Source of the DNA: a virus
Taxonomy: Duplodnaviria; Caudoviricetes
Strand: one strand, 5' to 3'
IMG/VR virus record: IMGVR_UViG_3300033121_000983
Location: 32,001 to 96,000 of that record
DNA length: 64,000 nt
Below the pieces are notes generated by a model, which worked only from the letters and a program-made list of their open reading frames with translations, did not search any database and had not been told where the DNA came from. A program made the translations under genes and the position numbers. The first letter of the stretch is position 1. Each line of letters opens with the position of its first letter. Of this stretch, positions 29,302 to 38,298 are shown piece after piece.

Positions 29302-30804
29302 CTATAAACAGATGCCGTCAATGTACCGCGCGGTCAGTACATCCGGCAGCAACGTGACTGGGTCCAGCTCATCTTCTTGTGTATCGCCGTAGGAAATCGG
29401 CGTAATTGTATCAGTAATCGCGCTGGCGTCTAAGGTCGACGTCAGCGCAGTTGCCGTAAGTTCAATCAGAACCGTTGCGTGCGGCGGCAGCAGTCGGCGC
29501 AACAGGCGCAGTTTTGACAGCGAAAGCGCTGCCGGGCCCAGGCGATCAACAGCGATCCGCACCAGTACAGCGTTGTTGCGCAGCACATTCTCGGCGACAA
29601 ACTGCGCCGGATTGATTGTCGCAGGCAGGTTTGAAGCCACTGGCTGGCCGGTTTGGTTAGTGCGCCGATCCAAAAGCATCGCCAACGTCTGCCCGGCATC
29701 CCGACCCCGCTGCTGCATGGTATCGAAGAGCCAATCCACGTCAGCAGGCCAGCCGCCGACCTCGAAGCGCAAGTCGGTGTAACCTGCGTCGTCAGTCGTC
29801 ACGGTGACGGGCCGGTTGTCGTTGACGAAAAACAGACCGCCGAATGTGTCGTGGCTCAGCAGCGAGAGGTCGAGCGATAACCCCGTCAGATCGTAAGGCA
29901 GTTGTCCGTTGCCGAAAGAATCGATCTGCAGGGCGTCGGTCATCGTCTGGCCGGGTGTCAGCGTATCATCGACCAGTACGGTCGCAACCGCGTCGCTACT
30001 GTGATGATAGACGTGCTGGTCGGTCGCAATCCACTGATACCCGTCGCTCGTGAACAGGCTTTCGACGGTCTCCGCACTGAGCGCAATCGGCACGTCGCAC
30101 AGGGCACTCAGGAACTGGCGCAATCGCAGTTCGGACGCCCCTTCAACTGCGCTATCGAAGATCGCGTTAACGGCATCGCGGTAGTTACTGCCGTTGGTGT
30201 CGCGAAATTGCGCCGCGTAGCCCCACTGCTTATACACGTTGTCTTCGTCGAACCGCGGCTGGTGCAACCACAGCTCGATTTCGTAATCTGTTGCGGACTC
30301 GTTATCCGACGCGTACAACCCACGCAGCGGAATGGCCGCGACGTCGAACGGGTTTTGCGCGAATTCGATGTAGTTCTCGTCGAGGTTGAGGGTGTAGTCG
30401 ATGCCCTCTGTCCAGATCAGACTCGGATTGGCCGGCGCCGTCGCGATAAACGGCACGCTCACCAGCCCTGTTGGTAGCGAAAAACGGAAACCGTTAACCG
30501 CTCGGGTAGCTCCGTAGGAGATTCCGCTACCGTACGTGATGTCAGCGTCACCGAAGCGGTAGGCAACCAGCGAACCGTCGTTGAGTTTGGTTTGACGTAA
30601 AACCAAACTCTGCCAACGCGACGTACGGTAAATCGGCGTCGTGCGTCGATTGACGGCGGCAATTGCGTCCGTGAGCGCTGTGTCGACTTCGGCTTCGACC
30701 GCTGACAACCCGGCCAGGTAGGCTGCGAGTTGGCCTTCGTCCGAAAACACCGTGCGCCACACACTCCCCAGAAGCGGCAGAAGTGTTTGCGGAGTGACAG
30801 CCAT
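29302..30804 (-). CDS. Baseplate wedge-like structural protein
   Basis: 500 aa; C-terminal LRRLLPPH resembles P2 gpI-type wedge ends; EGIDYTL motif. Confidence 0.6.
   Translation of the reverse strand: MAVTPQTLLPLLGSVWRTVFSDEGQLAAYLAGLSAVEAEVDTALTDAIAAVNRRTTPIYRTSRWQSLVLRQTKLNDGSLVAYRFGDADITYGSGISYGATRAVNGFRFSLPTGLVSVPFIATAPANPSLIWTEGIDYTLNLDENYIEFAQNPFDVAAIPLRGLYASDNESATDYEIELWLHQPRFDEDNVYKQWGYAAQFRDTNGSNYRDAVNAIFDSAVEGASELRLRQFLSALCDVPIALSAETVESLFTSDGYQWIATDQHVYHHSSDAVATVLVDDTLTPGQTMTDALQIDSFGNGQLPYDLTGLSLDLSLLSHDTFGGLFFVNDNRPVTVTTDDAGYTDLRFEVGGWPADVDWLFDTMQQRGRDAGQTLAMLLDRRTNQTGQPVASNLPATINPAQFVAENVLRNNAVLVRIAVDRLGPAALSLSKLRLLRRLLPPHATVLIELTATALTSTLDASAITDTITPISYGDTQEDELDPVTLLPDVLTARYIDGICL
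30583..30610. promoter_or_regulatory. ACGT-centred palindrome, site 3, inside a CDS (GAGTTTGGTTTGACGTAAAACCAAACTC)
   Basis: 11-bp perfect inverted arms. Confidence 0.6.
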
Positions 30805-30807
30805 GCT

Positions 30808-31794
30808 CTACTCAGTTGTGTGGGTGTGTAGCCAACCGTGGATGTTGTTGAGCAGCTCCGGTCGCGCCGCGTAGGGCTTTAGTGCCGCGGGATCAACGCC
30901 GTGATCACGAATCAGGTGCTCGAGTGACGTATTGCGCAGCTGCCCACGTCCGTCTGACTCATACCACGCTGTCGTAAACTGCGCGGCACGGTGCAAATCG
31001 ACGCCGCCAGTACTGGCGCGGCGTTCGTCGGTACCAGCGCTTTTCTGCCACTTAGCCAGAAACGTCGCGAGATTAGCCCAGCCAACTTCGACATGCGTCG
31101 CACCTGTCGAAGTTTTCCAAGAGAAACACGGGAATTGTGTGGTTGGCGCGGGCTTATCCTTCGGATCCCAGATCACATCAAACGGCAGGTTAGCCGCCGC
31201 TTTAAGCGCAGCTTTAGCCGCTGCGCACGGACCGCAGTTGGCGGTCGACCAGGCGTACACAACGGGCCGCGCCGGCAGCTCGGCAATCACGGCAGGGGGA
31301 TCTGTGCCTGCCGCCGGCGCAGCCCACGCGAGCGTAAACTCGCGCGTCTGGCGTACGGGGCCGAGGGCCGCGGTCGCAGTGCCACGATTGTCTGCGTTCA
31401 ATTCCAGCCGCTCCAGTTTGGGAGAGACGCTGAAACCAAATACACGCGCACTGATCGTAGGCCGAGGCTCGGCAAAGGTAAATACGCCGTGATCTGGCGT
31501 TAACGTGTAATTTACGCTGGCGCCAGCCGGTACGACGATTGTCAGACCGGACTGGGCGACCTTCAGCGGTTTAGCGAGCGTTACAGTGTTGGTGTCACCA
31601 AGCCACTGATGAAGCGCCGCCACTGCTGATCCTGGGGCCTCGACACGGAGCGTTTGCAGCTCTGTGCCCTTTGCGCCTGACGGCGTGGAGAAATACGACG
31701 AGCGCTCGGGTGTCATCGGTGCAGCTGCGCCGGTTTGACAACCAAGCGTAGACACCGAAGATAACGCCGCCAGAATCAGCAGTGACGTACGCAT
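30808..31794 (-). CDS. Predicted lipoprotein with a thioredoxin/glutaredoxin-like CGPC domain
   Basis: Signal peptide with lipobox-like TLGC; VYAWSTANCGPC and a cis-Pro-like QFP motif. Confidence 0.7.
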   Translation of the reverse strand: MRTSLLILAALSSVSTLGCQTGAAAPMTPERSSYFSTPSGAKGTELQTLRVEAPGSAVAALHQWLGDTNTVTLAKPLKVAQSGLTIVVPAGASVNYTLTPDHGVFTFAEPRPTISARVFGFSVSPKLERLELNADNRGTATAALGPVRQTREFTLAWAAPAAGTDPPAVIAELPARPVVYAWSTANCGPCAAAKAALKAAANLPFDVIWDPKDKPAPTTQFPCFSWKTSTGATHVEVGWANLATFLAKWQKSAGTDERRASTGGVDLHRAAQFTTAWYESDGRGQLRNTSLEHLIRDHGVDPAALKPYAARPELLNNIHGWLHTHTTE

Positions 31795-31802
31795 GGGAAT
31801 AC

Positions 31803-32678
31803 CTACAGTTTGAACACAGGCGGGATGAAGTTGGCGGAGTCGATCCAGTCCCAGCCTCGCGGCTTGACCGGTTCCGCCAAGTTCATGTCACTAGCTAGAA
31901 GTAACCCGTAGCGCGTGGTACGGCAGATCTTGTCGATAACTGCCGGCGCCACAAAAATGCGCGTGTCCGCACCCCAGCCAGGATGGCTGTTGTACATCGC
32001 GTAGTGGCGTTCGCCACCGCGCGTGCGCCAGCCGAAGAAGCCGAGCGCGTGTCCGCCTAGAAAATTGCCTCCAGGCATATAAGTCAGATATTCAACGCCG
32101 CGCAGACCAGACCAACCAGTCGTCCAGTCGATGCCGAATCCGCACGTGACGTTGCCGGTCACCATGGCGCGATCGAAATCTTCGAACGAACGGATACCCG
32201 GTACCAGCGTGCGGATATGCGTTTTCGCCGCACGTGTCAGCAGCTCAGCCGGGATCACGTTGCTGTAATTCTCGCCCTGCACGTAGTAGGGGAAGTCCGT
32301 TTCGAGGCACTCCCCGTAGTTCAACGCGGCCCGCATAGAACCACCGATACTCGCGCCAGCCGGACGACGGTCATTACCGTCCTGACGCATATCGGTGATC
32401 GCTGCGAACTTGCGCGAGTAATGCCGTAGCTCGCCCTTTGTGGCCATCCACGTCAGGATTTCGCTGCACATTGTGCGCATATGCGCGTGGCAGAACGGCC
32501 ACGCACCTTGCATATCCTGCCGGTACCCGGGGATCTCCAAGGTGTCGGGGATACTGGCAGGCGCTTCGCACACCAGCGCTGGTACCGAGAACTCGGCCAG
32601 CGCGGCTGTGTGCAGGTCTTCTTTATCCGGGTCCCATCCAAGTGGGTTACCGAACTGATCGAGGATGATGTCACTCAC
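31803..32678 (-). CDS. Papain-like (C1-family) cysteine peptidase
   Basis: QGAWPFC (oxyanion Gln, catalytic Cys), GGHAL (His) and YNSHPGWG (Asn). Confidence 0.85.
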   Translation of the reverse strand: MSDIILDQFGNPLGWDPDKEDLHTAALAEFSVPALVCEAPASIPDTLEIPGYRQDMQGAWPFCHAHMRTMCSEILTWMATKGELRHYSRKFAAITDMRQDGNDRRPAGASIGGSMRAALNYGECLETDFPYYVQGENYSNVIPAELLTRAAKTHIRTLVPGIRSFEDFDRAMVTGNVTCGFGIDWTTGWSGLRGVEYLTYMPGGNFLGGHALGFFGWRTRGGERHYAMYNSHPGWGADTRIFVAPAVIDKICRTTRYGLLLASDMNLAEPVKPRGWDWIDSANFIPPVFKL

Positions 32679-33049
32679 GGGCGGAATCCCTTAGCGATCT
32701 CGTCCCACACATCCGCTTGCGCGGACGCGGTTGTAGCAGCGGATAGTGCAGCTTTAACGCTTTTACCGACGGTCTCGTTCATATCGCCGGTAATCGCCGC
32801 GCTGCCTTTGTTCCAGGCCTCACCCTGCTGTTCGGCAGTCAGGTTGTTCGTACGAATCTCGGCGGCAATTGTTGCTGCCAATTTCGACAACTCGACCTGA
32901 GCGTTCGTATTGGTTTCCGTAATCGTACGCGACAGCGTTGCCGGCGCGGGTGTTGGCGCGGGGTTCGGTGTCGGCCTGTTGTCACCTGGTACCAGGCAAC
33001 CCGGCAGCAACAAGCATAGCGTCAGTGAGACAATGTAGCGGCGCATCAT
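32675..33049 (-). CDS. Small lipoprotein (o-spanin-like architecture)
   Basis: Basic N-terminus, hydrophobic stretch, lipobox LPGC and Pro-rich linker. Confidence 0.65.
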   Translation of the reverse strand: MMRRYIVSLTLCLLLPGCLVPGDNRPTPNPAPTPAPATLSRTITETNTNAQVELSKLAATIAAEIRTNNLTAEQQGEAWNKGSAAITGDMNETVGKSVKAALSAATTASAQADVWDEIAKGFRP

Positions 33050-33645
33050 CGTGGCTTAACTCCGTCGTACACACTGGGCATGACCGTTGCTGCCATGTCC
33101 TGGCGCAGTCGTGCTTCCAGCTCGCGCATAATATCCGACACAGGGCGCGGATCTGCAGGGCTCGCAGACTTAAGAGAGTTGCCGTCTGTCAGCTGTGACG
33201 ACAGGCGCTGCACCAGCGACATCGCCACTGGGTCACTCAAGCTGTGAGAGGCCAGCGTGGTCAGCGCGGCGCGCTGTTGTTCGCCGCTATCCTTACTGCC
33301 CTGCATAGCGCTACGCGCAGCAAGACCCAGGAACGTAGCTGCCGCGCCGGCTAACACCAGTTGGTTGCTGGTGTTGTTGGGCGCGGCGATGCCGTAATAC
33401 ATCAGCGTGGCCACGTAGGTGGTCACAGCGGCGGCGACGTTGCCGCTAAGGCGCCAGGCAATGTCTGGCACCGCGGCGAGATTGAGCCGCAGCGTAGCTG
33501 GCGGCGTAAACGGATTGAGCGGGTTGCCAGGCACAGTCGGATCCTTGTGTTGGACAGCGCATACCGGCGGAGTCTGGTACGCAGTCGATGGTTTCTTTGC
33601 CCGTCGGCGACGACGTCGCCTCTTGGGCGCACCTGTTGCGGTCAT
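33046..33645 (-). CDS. Holin-like membrane protein
   Basis: Two hydrophobic segments and a very basic N-terminus; lies beside the peptidase. Confidence 0.5.
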   Translation of the reverse strand: MTATGAPKRRRRRRRAKKPSTAYQTPPVCAVQHKDPTVPGNPLNPFTPPATLRLNLAAVPDIAWRLSGNVAAAVTTYVATLMYYGIAAPNNTSNQLVLAGAAATFLGLAARSAMQGSKDSGEQQRAALTTLASHSLSDPVAMSLVQRLSSQLTDGNSLKSASPADPRPVSDIMRELEARLRQDMAATVMPSVYDGVKPR

Positions 33646-33998
33646 TACTTGGCGATTTGGTCCAACACAAAGTCCGCCAAGTAGCGCAGCAGGAAGCCGA
33701 GCAACTCACGGCTCACGCCGATCGCCAGACCTTGCGGCTGCGTCTCGTCGGCAGCTGCAGTGGCTGACAGCCGCTCCAGTCGCTCGATCGCATCTTCCTT
33801 GCTGAGTGTGACGGGTTCCATCTCGGCGGCTCGCATGGCCAGCGGTGCACCTGGCTCACCGATGGTGCAGTTGAGGCCGTAGCCAGTGATCTCCCACAAG
33901 GCCTTAGCGACCTGCGGGGTGCTGACCGTCTGGCCGCGCAGCGCTGAAAGCACGAGCGGCACGTGTTCGAGAGGCAACGAGGCGGGATACGGAACCAT
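33645..33998 (-). CDS. Hypothetical protein of the lysis cassette
   Basis: 117 aa, translationally coupled; amphipathic C-terminal helix. Confidence 0.6.
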   Translation of the reverse strand: MVPYPASLPLEHVPLVLSALRGQTVSTPQVAKALWEITGYGLNCTIGEPGAPLAMRAAEMEPVTLSKEDAIERLERLSATAAADETQPQGLAIGVSRELLGFLLRYLADFVLDQIAK

Positions 33999-34001
33999 CG
34001 G

Positions 34002-34802
34002 CTAGTCCTTTGCGAATGTCAGCGTGGTGACGAGCTTGTCGTCCTCGTCACGAATCTCCAAGACAGCCGGCCGTGCCACGCGCACGACCTGTGTAGCCGC
34101 CTGGGTCATCGCCGCTTTTGGCGCGCCGTAGCGCTTGACCGCCTCTAGCGTATCGCCTTTTTGCGGCATAGTCACGTCTGCGTTGTAGTACGGAGCCATC
34201 AATTGCCCAGGTTTTCCGTGCGGCAGCCCGATGGCGTGGCCGATCTCGTGGCACATCACCGCCAGCGCCATGTGCTGCGACCATCGCTCAGCCTGATCGT
34301 ACATCTGGGCAAGTTGCACGGTCGGGGTAGCGTTGCAGGGCATGTAGGACCACGCCAGCGTACCACCCGCCCCGTCGAGGAACAGCTTACGCCCTGCCCC
34401 GGACTTGGCAGCGATGTTTGCACCACGGCTCGTCGCCAGTTTGCGGAACCGGATTCCGCAGACAGCTTCCCACTGGCGGCACGCCTGATCGAACGTCGCC
34501 GCGGCGACCGCGGGTGTAATGCCGGGTAACTGCAGCCGCACGTGGTAGGAGACCGCAGTCATCTTTTCCAACGGCCAGCGACAGCCGGTATCGTCGGTGA
34601 CGAAATCCGGCAGACTGCAGCGCAGCGGTGCGACCAACAGCCGCTCTGTTGCGGTATCGAGCTTGCCGGTGGGTTCGAGTCCATTAAAGCGCTGGAAACG
34701 CTTCAGACTCGTCGCAACTGTCTTGGCGGTGCCCTTAAGCATTGCCGCCTCAGTGAGATAGCCCAGGGCATGCAGCCGCTGCTTCAGTTCGTCGATCGAC
34801 AT
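34002..34802 (-). CDS. Matrixin (M10/MMP-like) metalloprotease with a peptidoglycan-binding-like prodomain and cysteine switch
   Basis: LKRFQRFNGLEPTGKLD (PG-binding-1), PLRCSLPD (cysteine switch), HEIGHAIGLPH and the LMAP Met-turn. Confidence 0.9.
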   Translation of the reverse strand: MSIDELKQRLHALGYLTEAAMLKGTAKTVATSLKRFQRFNGLEPTGKLDTATERLLVAPLRCSLPDFVTDDTGCRWPLEKMTAVSYHVRLQLPGITPAVAAATFDQACRQWEAVCGIRFRKLATSRGANIAAKSGAGRKLFLDGAGGTLAWSYMPCNATPTVQLAQMYDQAERWSQHMALAVMCHEIGHAIGLPHGKPGQLMAPYYNADVTMPQKGDTLEAVKRYGAPKAAMTQAATQVVRVARPAVLEIRDEDDKLVTTLTFAKD

Positions 34803-34863: not shown

Positions 34864-36528
34864 TTATGTTTCTGGAACCTCAACAGTCGCGACAGTGATA
34901 CTGACGTCCCGCGAGTCCAGGAAAAAGGCTACCGTCTTGCCGGTTGTCATACTGCCGGGGTCGTTAGGCACCACCAGCATGTCGCGCGATGACGAAGTCA
35001 CCACCGTACCGTCCGGCTGCCGCAGCGTACCCACCAACAGCATTGCTGCGATCGCGGAATTGCGCGGCAGGTACGACTGTACAAGCTCTGCAAGGATAGA
35101 CGCGGGCAGTCGACCTGTGAAACTGAATTGTCCATTTACCAGATCCGCCAGCGCTGTCGCCACGGTCTCGGTGTCGACCTCGGCTTCGGCGTTTTCCGGC
35201 AACTCCAGGCTGATACCGAGCTGCACGAAACACGGCACGGGTGCGCGCACCAGCACGTCAGCGGCCGCGTGCACGCGGCTGAGTTGCGTTACGTAGTCAC
35301 TGATGTCCGCGATCAGTGGCATCGACCGCAACACGCAGTCGTAGTCGCGCGTTGTACCGATGTCGTCGGCGGTCACAGGTGTGTCAACATCGGCAAACTG
35401 CAGCACGATAGTCTGGAACCGACTATACGCAGCCTCAGCAGCGTCTGTGATATCTGGCAACCGAGCCCCGTCAATTGCCGACAGATCAATGCCGCGCGTG
35501 TCGCTGACGACAGCGTAAGTGCCTTCGGTTGTGGCCTCGGTGCCTTCCTGCACGATGCGCGGCACGTCGTACACACCTGCGGCTTCGTCGCGCGTAAACG
35601 TTAGCTGCCAAATCCCGTTGCCGGCAGAGTTACGGCTCACCAGTGTCGCCGTTTTGGTGCTGGACGTCAGACGCGCGTTGCTCTGTGTGCGAATGTACCA
35701 ATCTACGCGACCGCCGGTTGCGCCAGGCCAAAGGGCATGCCGGTCGCGCAGCATCTCAGCGTCACCGAACCCGATGATGGATGACGCTACACACCCCGCG
35801 AAATCGGGCTGCGCCAGCAACAGCGCACGCATGGACGGGCGATCGGACAGTGTCTGCGAGGCGACGCCGGTGAGCAGGCGCTCGATTAACGATGCATTCG
35901 ACTCGCCGTCCGTTCCGCCTGTAAAGTCGGCAGACGCGAATGACTTCACATAATTCAACGGCGGTGACGCCAGCGTCAACAGCGTGTCTTTAGCCAGCAA
36001 CCCCGCGGCTCCGGGCTCTTCATCGGTCACGTCGATCGTGAACGCGTAGTTGCCGTCTGGCAGCGGCGTCAGCACTTTATCAGAGTCGGATTGCCGTAAT
36101 GACGACGCTGTGCGCGCGACAAATGCGCGAGTAGGCACGAATGTTCGGCCGTTTGCCGAAAACACCGCGCCTGCGGGAATCACAACTGTCTGCAGCGCAG
36201 ACACAACGATCGTCAGCGGACCACTGGCGTTTGCACCGGCGCGCCGCGTTAGGCGGAAATTTGCCGCAACGTTATCGACGATGTCATCGTCAGCCAGCGT
36301 AGGATCTGCTGCGATGTAGGCGAGTGATTGCGACCGCTGGAGTCGCGTAAATTCCTCGGCGCGTTTCGCCGCCAGCACGCCCGCCAGGCGCGTCAGTACG
36401 CTGCCCAACGCGCCGCGGCGTGCATCGACTTCCGGCGCGTACGCCTCCAGCGTGGCACCGAGCTGCGCGGATAGGCTCTGCACAGTCGCCAGGTCCAGCG
36501 ACAGCAGGTCATCGATCTGAATGGGCAT
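34864..36528 (-). CDS. Baseplate J-like wedge protein
   Basis: LTRRAGANASG, VIPAGAVF, FTGGTDGES and GRVDWY motifs; follows the gp25-like gene. Confidence 0.85.
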   Translation of the reverse strand: MPIQIDDLLSLDLATVQSLSAQLGATLEAYAPEVDARRGALGSVLTRLAGVLAAKRAEEFTRLQRSQSLAYIAADPTLADDDIVDNVAANFRLTRRAGANASGPLTIVVSALQTVVIPAGAVFSANGRTFVPTRAFVARTASSLRQSDSDKVLTPLPDGNYAFTIDVTDEEPGAAGLLAKDTLLTLASPPLNYVKSFASADFTGGTDGESNASLIERLLTGVASQTLSDRPSMRALLLAQPDFAGCVASSIIGFGDAEMLRDRHALWPGATGGRVDWYIRTQSNARLTSSTKTATLVSRNSAGNGIWQLTFTRDEAAGVYDVPRIVQEGTEATTEGTYAVVSDTRGIDLSAIDGARLPDITDAAEAAYSRFQTIVLQFADVDTPVTADDIGTTRDYDCVLRSMPLIADISDYVTQLSRVHAAADVLVRAPVPCFVQLGISLELPENAEAEVDTETVATALADLVNGQFSFTGRLPASILAELVQSYLPRNSAIAAMLLVGTLRQPDGTVVTSSSRDMLVVPNDPGSMTTGKTVAFFLDSRDVSITVATVEVPET

Positions 36529-36536
36529 GGAACATC

Positions 36537-37025
36537 TCACACCGTGCCAAGGGAGAAATTAGCAGGCAGCAAGTATACCGCAGATGCCCCGGCCTGTGAT
36601 GTGACTGTGAACGTCACGCCGGCGTAATCGCCGGAAAACAGCACGTTCTGCGACTGAATCTGCGCCAAACGCTCATCGGCGGGATCCGTTTCCAGCTCTT
36701 CGTTGACCAGATTACGCGCTGCTCGCTGCGCTGCTCGGGTGAATGCCGACAACAGCCCGGCAGGCGTGCGCACCGCACCGCTGCGTAATTCGGTCAAATA
36801 GCCGGTACCGCGCTCGGGAAAGTAAGGCTCCGACCCGGCATCCTGCAGAAGCTCCAGGAACACGCGCTGCGCCAGCTTTTGCAGACCGGCTGTGATAGTC
36901 CCACCGGTCGCCGGGAGCGCCAACGCCAGCGCGACTTCCTGCGGCATATCGGTGACGTTGATATCCCGCGGGTGCAGCACAAGCAGATCGACCTGGCGAC
37001 CGATGTAGTCGTTTGCTGAAACCAT
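36537..37025 (-). CDS. gp25/GPW-like baseplate wedge (sheath initiator)
   Basis: GLQKLAQ...LL...GS...PERGT pattern; lies upstream of baseplate J. Confidence 0.75.
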   Translation of the reverse strand: MVSANDYIGRQVDLLVLHPRDINVTDMPQEVALALALPATGGTITAGLQKLAQRVFLELLQDAGSEPYFPERGTGYLTELRSGAVRTPAGLLSAFTRAAQRAARNLVNEELETDPADERLAQIQSQNVLFSGDYAGVTFTVTSQAGASAVYLLPANFSLGTV

Positions 37026-37534
37026 TAGTTACCGCCGGCGGCAGATGCCGCGAGTTTGAGGTTAGCGACGTAATCGGCAATGCCGCGATCAAGCACACCG
37101 CCACTCACGGCATGCGCTTCCTGGCGTGCTGCGGCGTGAGCGGCGGCACGGCAATAGGGCAGCGTTGCACTGAAGTAACTACGTTCCACGGCCTGAAGAA
37201 ACTCCAGCTGACTCTGTAACACCGCCAGATCGGCAACCGTCCCGCGCGGTTTCGACGGCTGTACGTTCGCTGGCTCCAGTGCGGACACCGGTCCGTCCCC
37301 GGTTTCCAGCTGTCCGACAATCGCCAGCATTTGATCGTGCAGGGTTTGCCGGTTGAAAGCTGCTGCAATCGACGCGGGATCGCGCAAGTCGAGCGCATCA
37401 CCGGCCTCACCTGTTGGCTGAAACCATTGCGGGCGCGCGTTGCCTTCAACTCCGTTGTAGGCGGCCTGTGCGTACGCCCGCAGTGCGTCAACTAGCGCGG
37501 TAAACTCATCAGTGACTGTAGCGACTGAACTCAT
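37025..37534 (-). CDS. Hypothetical protein
   Basis: 169 aa; overlaps both neighbours. Confidence 0.65.
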   Translation of the reverse strand: MSSVATVTDEFTALVDALRAYAQAAYNGVEGNARPQWFQPTGEAGDALDLRDPASIAAAFNRQTLHDQMLAIVGQLETGDGPVSALEPANVQPSKPRGTVADLAVLQSQLEFLQAVERSYFSATLPYCRAAAHAAARQEAHAVSGGVLDRGIADYVANLKLAASAAGGN

Positions 37535-38298
37535 GAAAACGCCTGAAGTTGTGCAGCTTCGGTCAATAGTTCCTGGATCTTGGCTTTACGTTGCGAAATC
37601 GCGCCAGGCGACAGATTCAGACGACGCGCGATCTCGCGGTTCTCAAGTCGCGGCTGTCCGTTCCAGCCGAGTGTCCATTCGAAGATTTTCTGATTGATCG
37701 GGTTGAGATCAGCGTAGACGACCTGGTGCATGGCGTGCTGCATCCGCCGGCCGCTCGCGCCTGGTTGATACGTCGCCGGATCGTATGACGATGATTCGTC
37801 GTCGCCGCTGTTGTCGGCAAACATCCCTTCACTGGCCGGCAACACCGCGGCGCGGATTTTCTGCAGACGCCGCGGGGCGATGCCGGTGTAATCGCTCAGT
37901 TCTTCGTCCGTCGGCTCCCGCCCGTATGTATCTTCCAGGTCGGCAGACGCACGCATCAGATGCTGACGCGACAGGGAGACCTGCTCGGGGACGCGCAACA
38001 CCTGCTGCCGTTGTCGTTCATAGCGCCGCATGCTCTGCAGATTGCTGATTACGTGCGTAGACAGTTTCGCGCGTGATGGATCGTATGACGACAATGCGCC
38101 GAGGGCGATGCGTCGCGCGTGGCCGACCGCTGTAGGACTACGGTCGTTACCAGCGTGCATCGCCAGTCCGGTGTCGATCGTCGGCCGTAGCGCGCGCAGT
38201 AACGCGCCGGTCGACGCCGGTGACGGCGTCTGTTTCCAGGCGTTAAAGAGCGACTCGTATTCGGGCTCGAGCATCGATTTTGGCGGCGACGTAGGCAT
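37531..38298 (-). CDS. RNA polymerase sigma-70 family factor (FliA/SigB-like; candidate late sigma)
   Basis: Region 2 YDPSRAKLSTHV, region 3 GREPTDEELS and region 4 HTH EIARRLNLSPGAISQ. Confidence 0.88.
   Translation of the reverse strand: MPTSPPKSMLEPEYESLFNAWKQTPSPASTGALLRALRPTIDTGLAMHAGNDRSPTAVGHARRIALGALSSYDPSRAKLSTHVISNLQSMRRYERQRQQVLRVPEQVSLSRQHLMRASADLEDTYGREPTDEELSDYTGIAPRRLQKIRAAVLPASEGMFADNSGDDESSSYDPATYQPGASGRRMQHAMHQVVYADLNPINQKIFEWTLGWNGQPRLENREIARRLNLSPGAISQRKAKIQELLTEAAQLQAFS

Follow-up and report, generated by a model that had tools for sequence, protein, structure and literature searches.

What a phage gains from two proteases, two lipoproteins and a small membrane protein encoded among its baseplate genes is the question raised by a six-gene cassette in a 64,000-nucleotide (nt) stretch of viral DNA, here called the window. 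The window comprises bases 32001-96000 of a 106,166-bp IMG/VR phage contig (IMGVR_UViG_3300033121_000983), whose completeness is ~52% by CheckV. The six genes, designated G1 to G6, lie in a long late operon on the minus strand, between a gene for baseplate J and the next tail gene. An earlier note on this DNA had described six tightly coupled genes at this site and had named their products as a matrixin, an unknown protein, a protein with two transmembrane segments, a lipobox protein, a C1 peptidase and a CGPC lipoprotein; the arrangement, as judged from the coordinates and spacing of the open reading frames (ORFs), and the gene identities were both borne out. On balance, and with slight rather than firm confidence, we read the cassette as a non-canonical, protease-based lysis cassette that replaces the usual wall-digesting enzyme. 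It would consist of two separable units, one being G1, with G2 possibly attached, and the other a portable G3-G4-G5-G6 module. This module, a fused form of it, its mobility and its exchange with the metalloprotease are new in this analysis. The cassette genes and the features that flank them are given below; L numbers refer to contigs used for comparison and P numbers to proteins of the G5 family.

34002..34802, minus strand: G1, leaderless pro-matrix-metalloproteinase-type zymogen, 266 amino acids (aa), from Pfam and alignment to pro-matrix metalloproteinases (proMMPs)
33645..33998, minus strand: G2, 117-aa soluble protein without a known family, with homologues confined to L010, L013 and L032
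33046..33645, minus strand: G3, membrane protein of holin-like type, 199 aa in its long form, whose two transmembrane segments precede a charged C-terminal domain, from its homologues
32675..33049, minus strand: G4, 124-aa lipoprotein with lipobox, Pro-rich linker and helical domain, from lipobox conservation
31803..32678, minus strand: G5, leaderless papain-fold (C1-like) cysteine peptidase, 291 aa, from its model, Foldseek and the catalytic tetrad
30808..31794, minus strand: G6, 328-aa lipoprotein with a probable thioredoxin-fold CxxC domain, from its lipobox, CxxC motif and structural match
34864..36540, minus strand: upstream flank, baseplate J-like wedge protein, 558 aa (Pfam Baseplate_J 2.2e-14; PHROG 6 at 1e-20)
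29302..30804, minus strand: downstream flank, 500-aa protein of the tail module, conserved in synteny in L010, L013 and L032
34820..34843, minus strand: motif containing TTGACGT within the 61-nt spacer that separates baseplate J from G1, from reading of the sequence

From G1 to G6 the genes are separated by a 3-nt gap, a 1-nt overlap, two 4-nt overlaps and an 8-nt gap, and the cassette then reads directly, across a further 3-nt gap, into the 500-aa gene, which the earlier note had called the next wedge gene and which had no family match in Pfam or PHROG. The six-gene set is complete and in the same place in three relatives (L010, L013 and L032). In comparison with L032, the ratio of nonsynonymous to synonymous substitution rates (dN/dS) was 0.09 for G1, 0.17 for G2, 0.07 for G3 in its short form, 0.29 for G4, 0.08 for G5 and 0.17 for G6, and 0.05-0.14 for the flanking tail genes, values that are approximate, dS being near saturation. 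By this measure, all six cassette genes are under purifying selection.

Two leaderless proteases and their membrane-associated neighbours

G1 matched Pfam Peptidase_M10 at 7e-16 (58.9 bits against a cut-off of 24) and PG_binding_1 at 1.5e-9, and its residues 8-232 aligned to proMMP-1, -3, -9 and -10 through prodomain, cysteine switch and catalytic domain (5e-16). The protein is laid out as a helical prodomain, a cysteine switch (PLRCSLPD), a zinc site (HEIGHAIGLPH) and a Met-turn. The switch aligns on the PRCGxPD motif, which reads P-RCGVPD in proMMP-10 and proMMP-9, and nine residues (C62, P65, D66, H185, E186, H189, G192, H195 and M202) are invariant in 8 phage homologues. G1 therefore shares the full pro-catalytic layout of vertebrate proMMPs without hemopexin (proMMP-7; the corresponding units in 1SU3, 1SLM, 5UE3 and 9CSX), a comparison made by E value (~5e-16) and not by identity. 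Classical MMPs are secreted. By contrast, the phage protein carries extra conserved cysteines and has no signal peptide, its N-terminus being the prodomain without a hydrophobic stretch, and the same holds for all 8 aligned homologues. In all its sequence features except secretion, G1 is a zymogen of the M10A type. The product of the adjacent G2 has a C-terminal amphipathic helix; it gave no match in Pfam, PHROG or NCBIfam and no informative match in a sequence-atlas search. Scans of all six proteins against PHROG and NCBIfam yielded no usable match.

The second protease, G5, falls below the detection of PF00112 and had no match in Pfam (E<=0.1), PHROG or NCBIfam; PF00112 matches are on record for more distant members of its family (P0030, P0165 and P0044). 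Its AlphaFold model (predicted local distance difference test, pLDDT, 84.7; predicted template modelling score, pTM, 0.87) returned 273 Foldseek matches in the PDB at E<=1e-3, every listed one a C1 peptidase. The best of these was xylellain (3OIS; 4.5e-11, template modelling scores 0.63/0.68 over 278 columns, nearly the whole protein), and Der p 1 and procathepsins B, K and L were among the others. Across 11 close homologues, three residues of the catalytic tetrad (Q57, C63 and H210) do not vary and the fourth, N230, hardly varies; in 62 diverse members of the family, Gln, Cys, His and Asn are all invariant. G5 thus shares both the fold and the Gln-Cys-His-Asn tetrad with xylellain and the papain-family C1 peptidases, but it lacks their signal peptide, I29-type propeptide and conserved structural disulfides, and it has lipoprotein neighbours. 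The catalytic residues are preceded by an N-terminal extension of ~50 aa with a conserved, family-specific motif (LGW..E..H), and a signal-like N-terminus was found in 0 of 129 normal-length family members.

Close homologues of G5 are rare, amounting to 11 clusters in a word-indexed search, with none in 185,579 species genomes. A profile search of 1.84 billion representatives yielded 560 relatives, 195 of them below 1e-10 and most of them 260-300 aa long. A papain-fold domain also occurs in phage proteins named 'peptidoglycan binding-like' and 'N-acetylmuramidase' at source (BFVD ranks 18 and 20), which we take as a hint that the fold is used in lysins. As a separate observation, four peptidases of the family (P0061, P0067, P0146 and P0162) harbor an intein exactly at the catalytic Cys: the host protein runs to the residue before this Cys and is followed by a Hint-type CF..GT start.

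G6 is composed of a beta-rich region (~residues 54-156), a predicted thioredoxin-fold CxxC domain (172-256, with CGPC) and a helical C-terminal domain. G18 and C19 of its lipobox are invariant in 6 sequences, the TLGC of this phage being slightly atypical at -3. C187, C190 and P222 are invariant as well, the CxxC motif occurring as CGPC, CRYC, CPPC, CGHC and CAPC. In the predicted model, this motif begins the first helix of a beta-alpha-beta...beta-beta-alpha order. Residues 172-256 compared with thioredoxins gave a VIA Z of 7.6, which lies in the grey zone below 8, with a root-mean-square deviation of ~3 A over ~80 residues and a model pLDDT of 63.7; nearly all of the top 50 structural matches of the domain were thioredoxins, including the periplasmic TrxP and SoxS. 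The whole model gave nothing below 1e-3 in Foldseek, and the protein had no significant Pfam or NCBIfam match (best NCBIfam E 0.12, well short of the curated cut-off). The helical C-terminal domain, encoded in the region of 30808-30950, belongs to no known family and contains four invariant histidines (H293, H298, H319 and H323) in the pattern HL..DHG ... IHGW.H; on the strength of these residues, it may bind a metal or a partner.

The two hydrophobic segments of G3 are only moderate in this phage, whereas its homologues in L010, L013 and L011 have two strong transmembrane segments; a charged, helical tail follows them. Being a small transmembrane protein with a charged C-terminus, encoded beside candidates for lytic enzymes, G3 is holin-like and may function as a holin. 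Its language-model neighbours include holin clusters at 0.86, a sub-threshold value that serves as a lead only. The positive-inside rule would place the C-terminal domain in the cytoplasm. There are two candidate starts: an ATG that overlaps the stop codon of G2 begins the 199-aa long form, whose N-terminus has a run of seven arginines, and an internal GTG at 33534, the start preferred by gene callers, gives 162 aa. L032 (2597-2714) retains the in-frame poly-Arg N-terminus; its codons differ by synonymous changes, and it is a GTG that overlaps the stop of G2 there. The two starts possibly resemble a dual-start holin/antiholin arrangement.

In the lipobox of G4, G17 and C18 are invariant in 6 lineages, and the protein is a probable partner or adaptor of the G5 peptidase. 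We also considered G3 and G4 as a spanin pair and rejected this assignment, given the predicted cytoplasmic tail of G3 and the finding of G4 fused to the peptidase, as described below.

A portable module, its fused form and a shared slot

At least seven phage lineages share G4-G5-G6 as a portable module, most often preceded by small membrane proteins and placed at different positions in their genomes. Local iterative searches located G4 homologues directly upstream of G5-like genes in nine contigs and G3 homologues beside G4-G5 in five, and G6 homologues lie directly downstream of G5-like genes in seven lineages and occur also in L033 and L034. Wherever its context is well resolved, a G5-family gene is immediately preceded by genes for one to three small membrane proteins: homologues of G3 in L010, L013, L011 and L027, and other transmembrane proteins in L002, L028, L029, L042 and L044. 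The module is inserted inside the baseplate genes in this phage, and between tail-tube-like genes and the Laminin_G/tape-measure region in a lambda-like phage with portal_2 and capsid_4 (L002, L024-26). In L029 it precedes the terminase and portal genes, from which three small ORFs separate it; in L027 it precedes the capsid gene and the tail-terminator gene, and in L028 it comes after DNA methylases. Co-occurrence, whose absence the earlier note would have counted against its reading, is conserved, the whole cassette recurring in three relatives and G4-G5-G6 with upstream membrane proteins in unrelated phages.

Six long members of the G5 family (466-524 aa) begin with an N-terminal transmembrane anchor, followed by a Pro-rich linker, a helical domain and the peptidase. 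The G4 profile matched the helical domain of these fusions with an hhalign probability of 91.6% (E 8e-7). In L030 and L031, the fusion gene is overlapped by an upstream gene for a protein with three transmembrane segments, and in L031, the only fusion context that extends downstream, a signal-bearing CxxC protein follows. Judging from these natural, membrane-anchored fusions of a G4-like domain with the peptidase, G4 and G5 probably act together, and the peptidase probably works outside the cytoplasm. The division of the G5 family into soluble and anchored forms is a pattern typical of endolysins, and by this analogy argues for such a role.

A further link between the two units was provided by L011, which shares two upstream genes, for a 2H-phosphoesterase-like protein and a Gly-rich 342-aa protein, with the phages of L003-L008 and L018. 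In the slot after these shared genes, L003-L008 and L018 carry a G1-type metalloprotease between small transmembrane or signal-bearing proteins, and L011 carries transmembrane proteins together with G3-G4-G5-G6. The lineage of the present phage has both units in tandem. From this exchange, the metalloprotease and G3-G6 may be read as alternative or additive solutions to one task. An exported Pro-rich protein that follows the metalloprotease in L003-L008 was tried as a relative of G4 and rejected (hhalign probability 1.6%).

A G6-like gene accompanies the cysteine peptidase in L002, L011, L027 and L028, all of them without the metalloprotease. The earlier note had proposed that the thioredoxin reduces crosslinks or triggers the Cys-regulated proteases; reduction of host crosslinks or triggering of the metalloprotease is the less simple explanation, as G6 tracks G5 in these four contigs. 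More simply, G6 would be a dedicated redox partner of the G5 peptidase, since it follows G5 and not G1 and also accompanies the Sec-exported G5 fusions.

PHROG scans of the neighbouring genes in L008, L011 and L002 returned nothing, and a Pfam scan of the neighbours in L044, L038, L039 and L033 returned only a beta-helix protein. The latter, at L033:7513-9798 after the peptidase module, is a 761-aa right-handed beta-helix protein (CEMIP/NosD/Beta_helix) of tailspike- or depolymerase-like type.

Canonical lysins, host and the surrounding genes

The earlier note had recognised no glycosidase, amidase or M15/M23 endolysin in the window, and this holds for the 106-kb contig. A Pfam scan of every ORF of >=100 aa on the contig detected no lysozyme, amidase, transglycosylase, M15, M23, CHAP or NlpC/P60 domain, and six-frame searches of the contig with PF00959 (Phage_lysozyme), PF01510 (Amidase_2) and PF01464 (SLT) found none, the control genomes having scored. 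The Pfam matches on record for called genes within 8-10 kb of the module in L010, L011, L013 and L024-L031 likewise include no muralytic family. In the literature searched, we found no matrixin or C1 endolysin described.

With regard to the host, no tRNAs were found in this phage sequence, and the 50,697 GenBank phages contained no useful relatives of G1, G5 or the baseplate protein. The only host hint concerns a different, metalloprotease-carrying phage group, through L018, which was binned with a betaproteobacterial metagenome-assembled genome (MAG). L018 (CAZWRK010000001.1) is a 123-kb sequence binned as 'uncultured Aquaspirillum sp.' that carries the metalloprotease-type gene block of L003-L008; either it is a phage assigned to the wrong bin, or it hints at the host of its phage group.

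The Pfam families found on the contig instead of muralytic ones were of replication, glycosyltransferase, terminase/intein, sigma-factor and lectin-like types. In batch Pfam scans of window positions 1-26000 and contig positions 94001-106166, Intein_splicing/LAGLIDADG domains appeared with a GpA-type terminase ATPase; the same scans showed a second gene bearing Hint/LAGLIDADG, and GT9 and GT2 glycosyltransferases among the tail-fibre genes. A batch Pfam scan also gave a Sigma70_r3 match at 1.3e-5, its output not specifying the matching ORF. We place this sigma-70-like gene at window positions 37531-38298, inside the baseplate/tail block, because a 254-aa L010 protein with 64% identity has a faint Sigma70_r3 match.

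The 61-nt spacer that heads the cassette is the only sizeable one of the operon. It contains two direct TTGACGT repeats at 34843-34820, which form an imperfect palindrome and may represent a phage-specific late promoter or operator. According to the first reading of the sequence, motifs of the TTGACGT class are present at other gene junctions of the genome too.

A proposed lysis model and its alternatives

Late in infection, G4 and G6 would be exported and lipid-anchored facing the periplasm and G3 would build up in the inner membrane, while G1 and G5 would accumulate harmlessly in the cytoplasm, with G1 held latent by its cysteine switch. Permeabilisation of the membrane by G3 would then allow both proteases to reach the envelope. 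There, G5 would dock on G4, G6 would set or protect the catalytic thiol of G5 in the oxidising periplasm, and the cysteine-zinc latch of G1 would be lost by oxidation or cleavage. The proteases would cut peptidoglycan stems or crosslinks, or the proteins that tether the outer membrane to the wall, leading to lysis of the cell. We favour lysis because leaderless hydrolases stand together with a holin-like protein and exported lipoproteins on a contig with no muralytic family, and because of the soluble-or-anchored split of G5, the transmembrane neighbours, the mobility of the module, the slot exchange and the purifying selection.

By its gene content, the cassette resembles the logic of holin-endolysin systems but belongs to no described endolysin or holin family. 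As in the holin-endolysin(-spanin) cassettes of lambda (S-R-Rz/Rz1) and in the P2 lysis genes of the late operon, a small membrane protein, one or more leaderless hydrolases and an outer-membrane-type lipoprotein are apparently co-transcribed late. The enzymes here, however, are M10A-like and C1-like proteases, families in which no endolysins are known; the cassette also has a thioredoxin-like lipoprotein of its own, and it contains no muramidase, amidase, transglycosylase or recognisable spanin pair. The signal-arrest-release endolysin Lyz of phage P1 is a lysozyme activated by intramolecular thiol-disulfide isomerisation, and the proposed gating of a lysis enzyme by cysteine chemistry on reaching the periplasm would be analogous. 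In the present cassette, the candidates for such gating are instead the Cys-zinc latch of G1 and a cysteine peptidase, G5, with a separate CxxC partner, G6.

Proteases of both types are also used by viruses of eukaryotes. Granulovirus MMP has a role at the end of infection in breaking host barriers. The papain-like V-CATH of baculoviruses, together with chitinase, brings about terminal liquefaction of the host (PMC9965964). Papain-type and MMP-type proteases are thus virus-encoded for the release of progeny at the end of infection in these systems too, but there they are secreted enzymes that act on the tissue of a eukaryotic host rather than on a cell envelope; any resemblance is at most convergent. 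Among published systems, the closest is the phage-derived metzincin Mtz of Listeria, paired with Tim, a lipoprotein resembling tissue inhibitors of metalloproteinases; together they act on the cell wall, sensitising it to lysins, and promote phage-mediated lysis and the release of virions (PMC8235301). This parallel, drawn by description, is that of a phage-associated metzincin with a lipoprotein; Mtz, by contrast, is secreted, belongs to a Gram-positive host and assists canonical lysins rather than replacing them.

Several points weigh against lysis as the function of the cassette. The contig covers about half of the genome, and a canonical endolysin could be encoded elsewhere; most of the contigs compared are themselves fragments. 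No biochemical activity is known for any member of the cassette families, and C1-type peptidases are not established as peptidoglycan hydrolases (PMC10318531). G3 belongs to no curated holin family in Pfam, PHROG or NCBIfam, no spanin pair was recognised, and no candidate for an i-spanin was seen in the cassette. The PG_binding_1 match of G1 was dropped as a sign of wall binding, since it is the standard prodomain of MMPs and therefore no independent evidence. Distant G5-like genes in IMG/VR keep their membrane-protein neighbours, but a recognisable G6 is often absent. In two lineages, moreover, the cassette is located within a tail operon, a setting that it shares with morons and entry enzymes.

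This last position is a classic site of morons and exclusion lipoproteins, examples of these genes being lambda lom and bor, T5 llp and phi80 cor. The cassette could accordingly be an envelope-remodelling or superinfection-exclusion moron that alters receptors or outer-membrane proteins to block phages or to condition the cell, without lysis. One fusion-form context does adjoin an integrase and an Imm_superinfect gene, and the Listeria metzincin-lipoprotein pair modifies the wall without itself lysing the cell (PMC8235301). Leaderless hydrolases, however, need a permeabilised membrane to reach the envelope, and permeabilisation is lethal; small holin-like transmembrane proteins always accompany the module, no other lysin was found in the contexts examined, and conservation of the module is strong in large phages that appear to be lytic, all of which makes such a role rather unlikely. 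G1, and possibly G5, might instead be entry enzymes: carried by the baseplate, on or within it, they would be set free in the periplasm at infection and make a local opening in the wall, the switch silencing G1 during assembly. Tail-associated lysins are common, virion proteins would be expected to be leaderless as well, and G1 is the gene next after baseplate J in this phage as in L010, L013 and L032. We nevertheless consider this reading improbable: in L003-L008 and L018 the G1 homologue is located outside the tail genes and flanked by transmembrane proteins, in L029 the module is outside the tail genes and upstream of the terminase and portal genes, membrane-anchored G5 fusions cannot be virion parts, and G4 and G6 are lipoproteins.

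The version put forward in the earlier note, an exit module directed against a proteinaceous, disulfide-crosslinked envelope of the surface-layer or Planctomycetes-Verrucomicrobia-Chlamydiae type, with the thioredoxin reducing crosslinks or triggering the proteases, would account for two proteases of general type and an exported CxxC protein with no muralytic enzyme. We regard it as quite improbable. Nothing points to such a host, there being no tRNAs and no relatives in species genomes or cultured phages, and the only host hint, from the related metalloprotease-carrying group, is to a betaproteobacterial MAG; furthermore, the association of G6 with G5 even without the metalloprotease, and with Sec-exported G5 fusions, points to a dedicated partner of the peptidase. 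The same note had offered the folding of Cys-rich tail proteins by the thioredoxin as an alternative, which can be extended to morphogenetic helpers in general, the proteases trimming Cys-rich tail and baseplate proteins. The location inside the baseplate genes agrees with this, as do the Cys-rich tail proteins that the note had reported nearby. G6 is unlikely to fold tail proteins, however, because it is exported from the cytoplasm: the conserved lipoprotein signals of G4 and G6 take both out of the compartment where tails assemble. The module also occurs outside tail operons and in phages with quite different, unrelated types of tail, and its anchored fusions are membrane proteins, so that a morphogenetic role appears very improbable.

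To our knowledge, every established endolysin cuts peptidoglycan by means of a small set of glycosidase, amidase and peptidase folds. Beyond the single cassette, we tentatively propose a widespread and hitherto undescribed lysis system, a generalisation that may well not hold, in which a papain-type peptidase, either released by a holin or anchored in the membrane, replaces the muralytic endolysin and is served by an exported, helical lipoprotein adaptor and a periplasmic, thioredoxin-like redox partner; in the present phage, this system would be doubled by a cysteine-switch proMMP, making lysis purely proteolytic and redox-gated. The lysis hypothesis lends itself directly to testing, thanks to the natural fusion of G4 with G5 and the slot exchange involving the metalloprotease. 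Annotators would gain a module to recognise, in which transmembrane proteins and the G4 lipoprotein accompany a C1-like peptidase without leader and a lipoprotein with CxxC. If true, the hypothesis would extend phage lysis to new classes of enzyme and to a new logic of activation, provide new envelope-targeting enzymes to study, and explain the apparent lack of an endolysin in many uncultured phage genomes.

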